Under the pieces are notes generated by a model, which saw nothing but the letters and a program-made list of their open reading frames with translations, was not told the origin of the DNA and ran no database searches. This document shows, one piece after another, positions 18,519 through 61,604 of a stretch of DNA of 64,000 nucleotides. The number at the start of each line of letters is the position of its first letter. Position 1 is the stretch's first letter. Location of the stretch: positions 200,012,001 to 200,076,000 of the forward strand of contig OX597815.1 in the NCBI GenBank assembly GCA_951406725.2, given 5' to 3'. This DNA comes from Octopus vulgaris (Eukaryota). A program made the position numbers and the translations under genes.

Positions 18519-18596
18519 TATCGTACGTTGACCTGATGAGCAAAGCAAGGAAAGAAGCAGTTAGACTTCGTTTAATTGAAACGTACGATATGTTAA
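18519..18596 (+). ncRNA. Degenerate hammerhead-like motif
   Basis: CTGATGA (18533) ... GAAA cgtacg (18578). No valid cleavage triplet and a poor stem II. An 11-bp inverted repeat tatcgtacgtt/aacgtacgata brackets the core. Confidence 0.4.
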
Positions 18597-18822
18597 TTTT
18601 ATAGTCACAGATAGATCTGGATGCCATCTGTGTACCGAGGTATAGGCTGTGTACAAGATAAAGGAGATTCTATTTAGGGATGTCGGTAAAACACTAGTGA
18701 CGTGACTAGAAAGCAAACATAACAAAGTATCGTACACCAACATGAAAGTAATGCTTGTATATATATATATATATATATATATATATATATATATATATAT
18801 ATATATATATATATATATATAC

Positions 18823-18960
18823 ATACAAAATGGGACAAGAACGCAAAACATCCAGATAGACGATGCAAAAAAAAACACGGACGGGTCCTTCGAAGCCTTT
18901 AATCTTCAGTCAAGAACCGGATCATCCTCGCAATTTCGGCAATCAGCGTTCTTGTCCCTT
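18823..18960. mobile_element. Short (TA)n-embedded element, second copy at 50065-50190
   Basis: gggacaagaacgcaaaacat...ttcgaagcctt..atcttcagtcaa.aaccggatcatc.tcgcaat is shared by both loci. Here it has 13-bp inverted ends gggacaagaacgc/gcgttcttgtccc. Confidence 0.7.
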
Positions 18961-19929
18961 ATATATATATAGCGGCGTTGTACACTTTCTTCTCTCCCCC
19001 TCTCTCTTTCTCTCTCTCTCTCTCTCTCTCTCTCTCTCTCTCTCTCTATATATATATATATATATATAATGTATATATAATGCTTGTATATATAATTTGA
19101 ACTCATGGACAACATACGACGAATTGTTCGTGATTGTAATATTAAATGACGGTACTGATTGCCCTCAGTCAGAAAATAAATACACTCAAATTTACTCTAC
19201 AAAGATAATTTGAAGAGGCCAAAACAAGATCAGCGATTTCTTGTCGTACAGCGATCTCCAGTGGTGTATATCTCACCACATTGTTTACGTAGAGAGGAAA
19301 AAAACATATATGAAAGTTTTTTTTTCAATATAAGATCTAGTTCATTTGAACTTGCTAGCCTTTATTGATTGATATTTAACTTTCATACCTACATTTTTGT
19401 CCATTCAGACACTATCCTGGACTCTTGTCTAACGTATAATAAATAGCAAAATAACACGCTAATACCCGAAAGCAATTATCAATAATTCTTCATCTAAACA
19501 AGAAAAATATGAAGTCAAATATTGGCATTTGTTCCTCAAGTTTCCAGAATATAGCACCAATATGACTCCATTTAATGATACTATCTAAAAGGGACAGCGG
19601 GGTTTCTATTGATTGTGATAAGCGTTCCCAAATAAACGAATTGTGGGACCCATTAATGATCTACTTTCTTATTTCCCTAAACGACTTGTAATCTATCTCT
19701 TTGTCGATCACCTCTCTTCCCTACACACTTTCCTATTTACTTTCTTTTCTGTGTGTAAGCTTATCTGATCCCACTCCTCGTCACCTCTCTCTCTCTGCTG
19801 GCACACATACACACGGATATATATACATACATGCAGGTATGTATATATATATATATGTATGTGCATACATACGTACATACATACATGCATGTATGTATGT
19901 ATATACATATTTTTAAGTATGTATATATT

Positions 19930-20140
19930 CGTTGGAAATTTTGGCACAAAGCCAACAATTTCAGGGGAACGGTTAAGTCGATTACGTCGACTCCAAGTGA
20001 TCAACTTATAATTATTTTATCGACCCGGAAAGATCGAGTGTCAAATTTGACCTTAGCGGAATTTGAACTCAGAACATAAAGACAGACGAAATATCACTAA
20101 GTATTTCGCCCGGCGTGCTAACGTTTCGGCCAGCTCACTA
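19930..20140 (-). mobile_element. SINE type C (alternative tail)
   Basis: gcggaatttgaactcagaac...gacgaaata...ttcgcccggcgtgctaacgtttc. Confidence 0.8.
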
Positions 20141-20433
20141 CCCTAGAATATGCATATACTGGTGTTTGTTCTCTGCCAAGTTATATATACATGTAGACGC
20201 ATATATACATAGATACATATATATATATATATATATATATATATATATATATATATATATATATATATATATATGCGTATAAGAAGAGATGACCACTAAG
20301 TGGACATCCAATATGCTAGAAGAAGATCACCCACGATCTAACCACAAAGAAATGAATCTTCTCTAGAGAAATTCAACAAACACCAGAACATAAGCGGATA
20401 AGACAGAGGAAAATATACAAAATAAAGAATTAA

Positions 20434-20499
20434 TCGTAGAGCGATTTCGTCATTAACGATTTTACTTACGTAACATCGTCCGTGGACTCTTCAGTACGA
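20434..20499 (-). ncRNA. Type I minimal hammerhead ribozyme (Penelope-type)
   Basis: tcgta-CTGAAGA-gtc[..acgat..atcgt..]gac-GAAA-tcgc-TC-tacga. Perfect 5-bp stem I, paired stem II, minimal stem III. Confidence 0.8.
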
Positions 20500-57910: not shown

Positions 57911-59580
57911 CGCAAACAAGGACGTGGGAAAACATATGCAAGCATTGTCACTGCCATAGAATCGGTAACCAGGCTGATCTTTGCTTTTGTTTATTTTATT
58001 GTTTGCACTCCCTAAAGTAAACCCGCATCATATCACGTGGTATTGCATTGTCTTGTCCTGTATCATTAAAAGATCTGTTTGGAAACCCTTATTGCTGAAG
58101 AAAAGAAATTACCACCACCAGATTGGGTTGCCATTTCAGTAAACTAAAATTTGTTTTGTGACTATATATATATATATATATATATATATTATCACCCCCA
58201 CCACCCCATCCCACTTCTACTACTACTACTACTACTACTACTACTACTACTACTACTACTACTACTACTACTACTTAATTCATTGTATTATTCTAGGTGA
58301 AATGTTCATGACATTTTCTGTAGTAATTTTTCTGGAGAAAGAGAGAGAGAAAAGAGAGAGTGCTTTGACTTCATTTAATTTTTTTTAATATTATTCACTT
58401 AGAGCTTTTGTGACCACCTGCTGAGTTCTTGCGTTCATATTTTCTTTTCCAACTCTTTCTAATTACTGAGATCGTCTGGCGTTAGTTCATCTGTTTAACA
58501 GAATACATTATTCTTTATACAAACTATACTTTAGGCGTCATGACCTATATGATATTGTGATGTCGGTTGGCTCAGTCAGTGAGTCTCAGATTAAAAATAC
58601 TAATATATTTGACAATAATATTATGAAACCTTTGCGCCCTCCCGTCTTTATTAATTAGAAAGCAAGATAGAATTTTCATCCATATAATTCTTCCTTTACC
58701 ATGGCACTGAATGAGTTTCTAATCTTCAGAAACACCCTTCCCGTGAGAAACACTGGATTAGCTTACCTTTCTATGTAAACATAATGCGTTTTATATTTCG
58801 TCAGAAATAGCTGTGTGGTGAAGAATTTCACGTCAAAACTATGTGAGTCGGAGTTCAGATCCATTGCATGACATCATGGGCAAGTGTTTTCTTCCAGAGC
58901 CCTGGTTCAACGAAAAGGCTTGAGAATGATGAAAACGTGTAGAAAGAAAATGTGTCTTCTTATTCTTGGGTGACAGATTTATCCTAGTTTAGCACTTCAC
59001 CTGAACATTGGGTGATTTTCGATGAGCTCACCTCGTAAATACTACAACCAGGTAATGATAACTTCGTTCCTTCTGCCACCCACTGCAGACCCCTAAAATG
59101 GATCATGAAAATTGCTGTTTCGTCTTTAATGAAGCCATTAAAAAACTCTATTTTATGGTGTCACACTAACCCCAGTTCAAACATTTTATACATTTTAAGC
59201 ATACAGCACAACTTTTTCTCAGTGAACATGTGGTAGTTTTGAGCGTCGAAAATTTTAACATCATTTTACGAATAAACGATTAAATGAAGTTAACAGGATT
59301 TGTGCGTTCCTGAATGGACTTTTACGCTTTATTTGCCTTAGTTTCAGCGCACGATCTCGGATCAAATTCCTTGCCATGCAAGTGCATCTCCGTAATTTTA
59401 CATAGCCTTCAACAGAAACAGCTACTAAGGCGATAAAATTGCAGTCGACTGCGTGTTGGAAAGAAAACCTCACAATATTTGTTCTGACTTCCTTTGCTCT
59501 GAGTTCAAATGTTGCTGAGGTGAACTTTAATCGTTTCAAGGTCGATGAAAAAAAAAAAAGAGAATCCAGGCTGGTAGATT

Positions 59581-59638
59581 GTTTTTTTTCTCTCTAGTTT
59601 CAGCTCAGAGCTGCGGCCATGCTGATGCACCGCCGTTT
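59581..59638 (-). mobile_element. Extremely 5'-truncated LINE 3' end
   Basis: Reverse complement of 39321-39378. Confidence 0.75.
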
Positions 59639-60158
59639 GGGTGAAATTGTTAGAGGGTCGGGCAATAATCCCTGCGATATCTACGCTGACGCTTATATTC
59701 TGACGGTAACGCCATCGACGATACTGGAGCCAAGATGTATCGACCAAATAGACATACTTGGTATAGAAAGAGGAGACTTGAATGCAGGGGAAAATGCTAG
59801 TCTTCCTAAAAAAGCCAGGCCTGCGCATACATGTGCAGATGCATGCTTAACTTTGACTACCGGATCTCCTATTAGTTGTAAATAAATAACTACCAGATTA
59901 TGATCTTCCTCAATGCGCTGCGAGACGGTCGATGTATACACCCTATCTAGCGTTTATGACAAATAGGTTGTTCCGACCTGATGAGCATACGCCACTCTGG
60001 CATGAAAACTATGTGCTATATATATTCTTATTTCCTGTTACAAGACTGAAAACAAGTAAAAGAGTCCTAATTTTTAGAGCCTGGTACTCATTATACCTTT
60101 ATTTTTGTCGAACCATCAAGTTACGGAGACGTAATGAAAGCAAAACTAATTAAAAGGA

Positions 60159-60537
60159 GCACTCCGTCGGTTACGACGATGAGGGTCCCAGCTGTAACGA
60201 TCAACGGAACAGCTTGCTCGTGGAATTAACGTGCAAGTGGCTGAGCACTCCACAGACACGTGTACCCTTAACGTAGTTCTCGAGGAGATTCAGCGTGACA
60301 CAGAGTGTGACAAGGCTGGCTCTTTGAAATACAGGTACAACAGAAACAGGAAGAAAGAGTGAGAGAAAGTTGTGGTGAAAGAGTACAGCAGGGTTCATCA
60401 CCACCCCCTGCAGGAGCCTCGTGAGGCTTTAGGTGTTTTCGCTCAATAAACACTCACAATGCCCGGTCTGGGAATCGAAACCGCGATCCTACGACCGCGA
60501 GTCCGCTGCCCTAACCACTGGGCCATTGCGCCTCCAC
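60159..60537 (-). mobile_element. SINE head B with tail i, inserted into an old type A copy
   Basis: Flanked by aaaactaattaaa / aaaacgaattaaa. Type A fragments lie at 60060-60140 and 60560-60760. Confidence 0.88.
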
Positions 60538-61398
60538 GAAAACGAATTAAATGTTAGGTGAAAGACACAAAGGCACGCGCACACACGAATATACCCATGC
60601 ATAAACGCCCACGCACACTCAACATATACAAAGGGCTTCCACATAGTTTCTTTTTACCAAATTCAGTCAGAAGGCATCGGTTGCTTCAGGGCTATAGAAG
60701 AAGACACTTGGCTAAGACGACCTGCAGTAGGTCGGAACCCGGATTCACATGATCATTCCTGTGTAGAGGCAATTGGTAAAATTTCTGTTTTCCGTTACGT
60801 TTCATTTGTATTGTGTTCGGTGTGTGCAAATTGTGGGTTCTATTGTTTTCCACTTGTAACTGTTTAAACCATCTATACAAATTTTGTATTGTAGTTCTTA
60901 CGCTTGTAATATAATCAGTTGAAAAAATTAGATTAAATGCTATTATCTTTGCAGTCATTATGCAAAATGTCCTCCTAAAGGCTGTTTAACATCTTAAAGC
61001 AATAAACAAGGGGGATAATAGCGTTGAAATCAATAAAACTGAAATGACAACGCATATGGGAAGGTTCTTGCGCTTCAATCCAACAAGTGAAAGCAACATA
61101 CAGTTTACATCTCATAAGAGCTCTTATGGAAGGTACGTTCAACTTAATTGACTTACAAGTGATTAGCACGTGCAGAAACAGCAGTGACGTAATGACACTG
61201 ATTGTAAATATCAACAATATGGCTCAACCAGAGGGCGAGAAGAAGCACCTCAAACGAGGGTTCTGCATGATAAATGTCTATGCTGTAGGGACTCGTATAT
61301 GTAGTATAATGAATTCAAACAGTTCAGTTACATAAGATTATAAATGCAGTTACTTGACAAAAAGTGTTTAAAATCTAAAAACAACCAGTAAATACAAT

Positions 61399-61604
61399 AT
61401 CAGTCGCCATGATATATCGTTAGCCACTACACACATTTTTCTCTCTCCTTGTTTCTCTCCTTGTTTTTTCTGTGTCCCTTTCTGTAGAAGAGCATATGCT
61501 CGAAATGTAAAAGACTTTTTCTATTCCTCAGCGTTATACTAATACACCTGTTTGTTTTCTACACCACCTGTCTTCGTCATTTGTTTTTTCGTAACCCCCC
61601 CCCC
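61399..61604 (+). mobile_element. Family H element with variant hammerhead and 14-bp TSD
   Basis: TSD ccagtaaatacaat at 61385-61398 and 61605-61618. Motif cttt-CTGtaGA-a-gagc-atat-gctc-GAAA-tg-TA-aaag at 61478-61513. Confidence 0.8.

Follow-up and report, generated by a model that had tools for sequence, protein, structure and literature searches.

The hammerhead motifs found along a 64-kb stretch of the Octopus vulgaris genome (contig OX597815.1; the whole stretch is called the window here) are very likely type I hammerheads in the 3' pseudo-long terminal repeats (pLTRs) of several families of Penelope-like elements (PLEs) ending at (TA)n, with cleavage being predicted in dimers only. The window, taken from a genome of 2.8 Gb, has a GC content of 36% and is rich in (TA)n and other microsatellites. 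An initial annotation of its sequence had already proposed a link to Penelope, targeting of (TA)n and a diversity of families, and all three were supported by the reverse transcriptase (RT) and GIY-YIG endonuclease (EN) frames upstream of the motifs in genomic copies, by counts of (TA)4 at the insertion ends and by comparing the families with each other.

We scanned the window with a strict type I descriptor demanding an exact core, a stem I of at least 4 bp and a stem II of at least 3 bp, a palindromic stem III not being required. As controls, we used dinucleotide shuffles of the whole window or of 500-nt blocks, in four settings with 100 shuffles each. The descriptor matched three times, always on the minus strand (C3 at 53240, 52935 and 20494), while the shuffles contained 0.02–0.14 strict matches on average, and none out of 100 reached three in any of the four settings. 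A fourth motif (C3 at 33740) was found when one mismatch in stem II was tolerated. The annotation had listed four intact motifs at 20434, 33657, 52882 and 53140, which are the low ends of these minus-strand motifs; three of them are confirmed by the strict descriptor and the fourth only with its stem II mismatch. The motifs reside in copies of four repeat families, A to D, with the following features.

53093..53436, minus strand: family A, pLTR at the 3' end of a Hydra-type PLE, flanked on either side by (TA)n
C3 53240, cleavage predicted behind C17 53145, minus strand: family A hammerhead with a 10-bp stem II and a palindromic stem III
52668..53033, minus strand: family B, 5'-truncated copy of a 465-nt unit plus a short inverted 5' piece
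C3 52935, A17 52887, minus strand: family B hammerhead, matched by the strict descriptor
52497..52599, minus strand: family B, second short 3'-end piece, between TA tracts
33625..34070, both strands: family C, mirror-image stub derived from the 3' end of a Hydra-type PLE, with (TA)n at either side
C3 33740, A17 33661, minus strand: whole hammerhead of family C, stem II with one mismatch
33864–33985, GAAA at 33938, plus strand: inverted half-motif of family C, followed by a ~73-nt tail
20275..20766, minus strand: family D, near-whole copy of a 531-nt head-to-tail unit lacking an open reading frame (ORF)
C3 20494, C17 20439, minus strand: family D hammerhead, matched by the strict descriptor; stem III of this copy is a decayed palindrome

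A type I core with a three-helix junction is thus strictly present in A, B and D, and with one stem II mismatch in C; the window copies of five further families described below (F, I, M, H and J) fall short of it. The five stem III palindromes named in the annotation all occur directly after GAA in the window. Their diversity had been taken as structural covariation, which does not hold in the strict sense because the families are unrelated; true covariation was observed between family B and a sister family (see below). The hosts had also been expected to be multi-copy repeats with defined ends, and families A to D indeed yielded 3017, 2505, 2084 and 2722 first-look candidates in the genome, respectively, each family sharing a sharp 3' end.

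It is extremely improbable that the motifs merely represent chance matches in A+T-rich repetitive DNA, even though the bare CUGANGA sequence is only modestly enriched in the window (38 occurrences vs. about 24–25 in shuffles, ~1.6-fold), Rfam is silent and two of the annotated motifs are single-copy and unfolded. Apart from whole-motif counts above those of every shuffle and homologous families which covary, the chance explanation is contradicted by features which the descriptor did not request. These became apparent in a systematic sample of eighty 10-kb stretches at fixed positions on 25 contigs (800 kb, three starts being shifted slightly), which contained 19 descriptor matches, compared to 0–4 in eight shuffles. 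A self-complementary stem III was present in 14 of these 19 matches vs. 1 of the 13 shuffle matches, and a G10.1-C11.1 pair in 12 of 19 vs. none of 13. Extrapolated to the genome, this amounts to about 60,000 intact motifs (rough range 38,000–98,000). The hammerhead density of the window is ordinary for this genome, and a hot spot was rejected (3 motifs observed vs. 1.5 expected, P about 0.2). Chance is refuted for families A to D and stands only for the CUGAUGA sequences at 18533 and 59978. The former (18519..18590, plus strand) fits no descriptor, forms no hammerhead fold and returned only itself in a genome search; the latter (59965..60020, plus strand) is followed by a GAAA, but its helices do not pair, and it is likewise single-copy. 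Overall, four motifs are intact or near-intact, five further whole motifs are imperfect, decayed or variant, and these two sites are unsupported.

At the sequence level, the window copies of families A and C were shown to be 5'-truncated 3' ends of predicted RT- and GIY-YIG-encoding elements with Hydra-clade motifs. The element of family A lies downstream of a GIY-YIG and RT frame in 17 of 20 loci chosen by protein similarity, and the upstream ORF carries DKT in the RT and a CxCX5C linker (L060, L067). Three of the 12 fetched loci of family C contain RT and EN (L118) or EN (L120, L122) upstream of the common untranslated region (UTR), with DKT and the CxCX5C linker in L118 and L120; the 3' UTR of this family extends over ~2.6 kb and the element over more than 5 kb. 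Both families insert at (TA)n, as is characteristic for Hydra-type elements. The CCHH motif, which is absent in the Hydra clade, was assessed by eye, and the N-terminal RWK motif of this clade was read in the 727-codon family described below. Because longer genomic copies of A, C and the Neptune-type family H run upstream into RT and/or GIY-YIG frames, we regard their window copies as truncated autonomous elements. The proposed linkage to Penelope RT and GIY-YIG frames was found for A, C and H, but not for B and D among the loci fetched. Likewise, the elements had been described as non-autonomous, which fits the ORF-less units of B and D and probably family J, but not A, C and H. As the annotation had stated, there is no PLE ORF in the window itself: the best match with a Hydra-type query had an E value of 0.29, and Neptune-type frames gave matches of 17–32 residues only, eight of nine at query residues 1–41 of frames which begin in flanking DNA. 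Searching the PLE proteins against Pfam yielded nothing useful.

A young Hydra-type family (L071–L100, e.g., G000:C27:15433926-15436037) contains a 727-codon frame which is open in most of 63 scored matches, carries RWK, DKT and CxCX5C, and shows a median identity of 99.4% among 30 copies. Its hammerhead is located about 37 nt from the 3' end, behind a 3' UTR of 1.1 kb, and TA follows the 3' end in 29 of 30 copies, with two alternative 3' ends about 71 nt apart. There is no copy of this family within the 64-kb window. By eye, its hammerhead resembles the one at the 3' end of the Hydra consensus that immediately precedes Hydra-1_Obim in the supplement of PMC8557442.

The insertions of families A to D share the anatomy expected for PLEs. 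Their copies have a sharp common 3' end and variable 5' ends, often with an inverted or direct partial copy, and partial tandem or inverted terminal repeats with an optional tail are present. In 8 of 12 loci of A, 11 of 12 of B, 13 of 14 of C and 10 of 12 of D (window copies included), no more than 150 nt separate the 3' end from a (TA)4, which makes 42 of 50 loci overall vs. 16% of random positions. Families B, C, D and the 727-codon family each exhibit two preferred 3' ends, 70–110 nt apart. It was further observed that 3' ends fall where the element's own sequence goes on with TA- or AT-like bases.

Families B and D consist of non-coding head-to-tail units with a type I hammerhead, as described for non-LTR retrozymes. 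In 7 of 11 other loci of B, a whole unit is preceded by the 3' end of another one (period 465 nt; our 481-nt reference repeats 16 nt across the unit junction), and the head-to-tail junction is present in 6 of 11 other loci of D (period 531 nt). The longest ORFs starting with ATG code for 31 (B) and 30 amino acids (D), the GC content is 33–34%, and most loci contain 1–1.7 units; among the loci read, a small number of upstream partial copies have sufficient length for a second motif (e.g., L152, L155, L156). The core of B is intact in 12 of 12 copies. A sister family of B with 2,121 first-look candidates has the same layout, and 98.6% of the cells are paired when both are compared, with four pairs changed on both sides across all three helices, while slid alignments gave only 30–44% paired cells. 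Because the sister shares the layout and has compensatory changes in all helices, the fold appears to have been kept in a non-coding lineage. Of the 29 bins of unit B, 28 are covered by contigs of four runs which we guess to be RNA; these contigs carry no strand, end or circle information. We consider it unlikely that B and D are self-standing non-LTR retrozymes which are moved by a LINE or other non-PLE enzyme and resemble PLEs by convergence. Such an origin would agree with ORF-less, A+T-rich head-to-tail units of 465 and 531 nt for which no sequence link to an autonomous PLE was found, but B and D carry the PLE insertion signature of a (TA)n target and inverted 5' partial copies, their 3' end is found at either of two positions, separated by 79 or about 109 nt, which is also the habit of the ORF-bearing families, and none of the loci read showed a poly(A) tail. 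We instead propose that B and D are mobilized in trans by the PLE machinery.

Two further insertions in the window belong to family H, which deviates in the hammerhead core.

61402..61590, plus strand: family H, Neptune-type PLE 3' end; minimal hammerhead with the variant core CUGUAGA (U6) at 61482
43596..44038, plus strand: family H, second copy with a longer 3' UTR; core CUGCCGA (C6) at 43917, ending at (TA)n

By comparison with longer genomic copies, these were shown to be 3' ends of a predicted Neptune-type element, as the longer copies extend upstream into a Neptune-type endonuclease (EN and part of the upstream ORF). Relatives of H contain the CX4CxxC linker in 3 of 7 loci examined, and 4 of 7 have paired cysteines and one C-terminal His, the second His of the Neptune CCHH motif not being located. 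From 53 fragments, three were unparsed and dropped before counting by lineage, and the 41 copies of the main lineage were gathered on the downstream part of the motif. In this lineage, which amounts to tens of thousands of copies, C3, U4, G5, G8 and A9 are kept in 38–40 of 41 copies while N7 and position 17 have drifted: N7 is occupied by all four bases (14/10/9/8) and position 17 by A in 25, U in 14 and G in one copy. H-related lineages with different loop 2 sequences keep A6. Loci L258–L277 served as unselected background DNA in the analyses of H, of J and of the partners of B and D. Variant cores may already be covered by Lunse and colleagues (2017), a work cited in PMC6765202.

Family J presents its hammerhead blocks in scrambled order.

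18822..18958, minus strand: family J stub between TA tracts, with a GAAA block followed by a CUGAAGA block (18909)
50066..50200, minus strand: second family J stub with the same truncation, CUGAAGA at 50164

Both stubs are devoid of block S, the upstream cleavage-site block of longer copies, which show the blocks in S-G-C order in 39 of 40 cases (L325–L364). Both sides of stem I change between two subfamilies (20 and 14 copies perfectly paired), stem III pairs, and by eye one more helix covaries; a 4-nt linker separates stem I from the strand preceding GAAA. A stem II as in type-SGC hammerheads was not found, as the bases directly after A9 do not pair with the strand before G12; judged by eye, the partner strand is located upstream of block S or, in one subfamily, five bases after A9. 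The tandem unit of 832 nt, which in one subfamily is arrayed as about eight units on G000:C6, indicates that J is probably non-autonomous. We tentatively propose, as a possibility rather than a probability, that the PLEs of this genome run hammerheads beyond the consensus, namely a working U6 core in the most abundant Neptune lineage and an SGC-like, non-circularly permuted motif in J.

Self-cleavage of the hammerheads is predicted from their sequences. A plausible course of events would start with the endonuclease of the element nicking (TA)n and priming reverse transcription near the 3' repeat of the RNA, with early termination and template switches leaving short, often mirror-image stubs. 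If a transcript contained two tandem repeats, the palindromic stem III strands of both motifs would pair with each other, and the paired dimer would cut out a unit-length RNA, which would likely be circularized; both the pairing between two motifs and a circular template have been proposed in PMC4209133. The stem III strands form no lone hairpin but, in families A, B, C, F and I, duplexes of −6.4 to −11.9 kcal/mol. The insertions end about 52 (A), about 219 (B), 36 (C) and about 164 nt (D) beyond the predicted cut. Because of these 36–220 nt, a linear RNA with its end at the cut is excluded as the template, which should be a ligated circle, uncleaved RNA or the antisense strand. We favor the circle, which would account for the ends beyond the cut and also yields tandems of more than unit length. 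With a single whole motif on each strand, none of the window inserts can form a dimer in cis, and the majority of them are probably inert, dead passengers.

An alternative, to which we assign a low probability, is that the folds at the 3' end of PLEs are retained to bind proteins or to direct packaging and need not cleave at all. Uncleaved RNA would explain the insertion ends 36–220 nt past the predicted cut without any circularization, highly successful lineages have C4 or U6 cores, and Naiads reach high copy numbers without canonical hammerheads (PMC8557442). However, the free N7 and the restriction of position 17 essentially to A or U in the U6 lineage correspond to the tolerance pattern of a catalytic hammerhead, and published PLE dimers do cleave to some extent (PMC4209133).

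Several results weigh against cleavage-competent PLE hammerheads as the common explanation. The proposed Rfam check was negative, as no hammerhead family reached the gathering score across the window; none appeared at E ≤ 10 in two small stretches, and at E ≤ 5 for the whole window, no hammerhead was among the 150 listed of 396 matches, which were mostly microsatellite matches to miRNA models. Five of six motifs folded no better as monomers than their shuffles, A alone reaching a z value of −2.74. In family A, C occupies position 4 of the core in 23 of 30 copies, so that the U4 of the window copy may have arisen by CpG decay; in the main H lineage, 38 of 41 copies carry U at position 6. The U4C and A6C changes reduce activity in vitro (PMC3088659), U6 itself being outside that work, and an A6C core cuts poorly in Mg2+ (PMC3088659, section 8; PMC7151607). 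Even in dimeric form, the PLE hammerheads published so far show weak cleavage (PMC4209133), and eight of nine Xenopus dimers remained uncleaved (preprint 10.64898/2026.07.22.740005). Among 67 loci with matches to Hydra-like ORFs, we found no autonomous partner of B or D; the one B-like match had the ORF in opposite orientation, and this search is weak because a genome search yields the best 40 matches only. The covariation between B and its sister represents a single evolutionary contrast, and 129 of 500 shuffles also reach four doubly changed pairs. Finally, our clade labels are based on motifs and similarity and not on tree placement.

The general arrangement has already been published, including for octopus (PMC8557442), and the present families extend this known picture. 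Hydra-1_Obim from octopus combines a (TA)n preference with a canonical hammerhead (Craig et al. 2021, PMC8557442, section 11, Files S1 and S2), and the Hydra clade, which is defined there by DKT and the CxCX5C linker (section 11), shares with A and C the C-terminal GIY-YIG domain, these two motifs, a hammerhead near the 3' end and insertion at (TA)n. The octopus Hydra hammerhead of File S2 also has a palindromic stem III, but its sequence differs from those of A, C and the 727-codon family; moreover, Hydra elements are described as generally <3 kb with tails of 30–40 bp, compared to >5 kb with a ~2.6-kb 3' UTR in C and to tails of about 70–110 nt here. pLTRs, inverted 5' copies, tails and a microsatellite bias are general PLE traits (PMC8557442, PMC3846280), and the latter has been described for Neptune as well (PMC8557442). 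Family H agrees with Neptune-clade PLEs in the CX4CxxC linker and a GIY-YIG domain with paired cysteines and a C-terminal His, and ends at (TA)n, but its dominant lineage differs from them by U at core position 6. The metazoan PLE hammerheads of Cervera and De la Pena (2014, PMC4209133) share with ours the palindromic helix III, the frequent extra base after A9, G10.1-C11.1, many divergent families per genome with mostly single motifs from truncated copies, and motif pairs close together on opposite strands. In contrast, several families here have stem III palindromes of 8–12 nt and stem II regions of up to 77 nt, and lineage-fixed U6 or C4 cores were not found in the text consulted. We did not find a natural U6 lineage in print in a search falling short of Lunse et al. 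2017 and the supplements of PMC4209133. Recently active PLE families of Octopus vulgaris are reported in PMC13282606, the main text of which does not contain the word "ribozyme".

Retrozymes resemble B and D in being short, rich in A+T and non-coding, and in consisting of head-to-tail units which each contain one type I hammerhead (PMC7229834; preprint 10.64898/2026.07.22.740005), and non-coding units and a PLE origin are treated in both sources, the preprint covering 35 genomes without molluscs. With 465 and 531 nt, B and D exceed the 170–400 nt given in PMC7229834, but lie within the 51–972 bp of the preprint, and they differ by occurring mostly as 1–1.7 units with PLE-type inversions. Longer copies of J correspond to type-SGC hammerheads (PMC10085705) in their S-G-C block order and pairing stems I and III, whereas the published ones form stem II and come from metatranscriptomes, not from animal genomes. 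If correct, J would be the first SGC-like hammerhead in an animal retroelement in the literature consulted. This one genome offers a usable test system for the role of hammerheads in PLE retrotransposition, as it contains a young open-frame family, non-autonomous units whose structure is under selection, and naturally occurring core variants in many copies. The families with variant cores and scrambled order are the parts worth an experiment: if U6 or scrambled motifs cleave, the search consensus misses a large class of hammerheads.

The remaining candidates of the window are imperfect or decayed.

32255..32894, minus strand: family F, imperfect hammerhead with C3 32608, GAAA 32511 and a palindromic stem III
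20860..20992, both strands: family I, palindromic stub with a decayed hammerhead, core at 20939 (minus) and half-motif at 20968 (plus)
47195..47345, both strands: family M, decayed palindromic stub with the core at 47277 (minus, G12 changed to A) and a half-motif at 47292 (plus)

In the motif of family F, stem I is imperfect and stem II is closed by an A-A mismatch. Family F is an old repeat with 1085 first-look candidates and about 80–85% identity between copies, and no ORF was seen in 10 loci; a 48-nt palindrome is located at the 5' junction of the window copy (32868–32915). Families I and M are small, with 21 and 68 candidates, and whole motifs or cores were found in relatives (L317 and L323 for I, L252 for M). 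A repeat at 20993–21216 with CUGAAGA, two hairpins and GAAA on the plus strand was rejected as a hammerhead, the CUGAAGA being on the strand opposite to the apparent sense and stem I not being found. With 1520 candidates and about 78% identity, this repeat is old, and its sharp end adjoins microsatellites. A long, near-perfect inverted repeat adjoining a TA tract (46425–46595) gave the top E value in the Rfam search, below the gathering score. Short interspersed tRNA-like repeats, which we take to resemble octopus SINEs, are abundant (12788–13286, 35488–35560 and many other places) and include a 184-bp tandem triple and one Rfam tRNA match. Broken frames at 9029–9503, 4411–4722 and 35800–36600 look by eye like pieces of mariner/Tc1 transposases.

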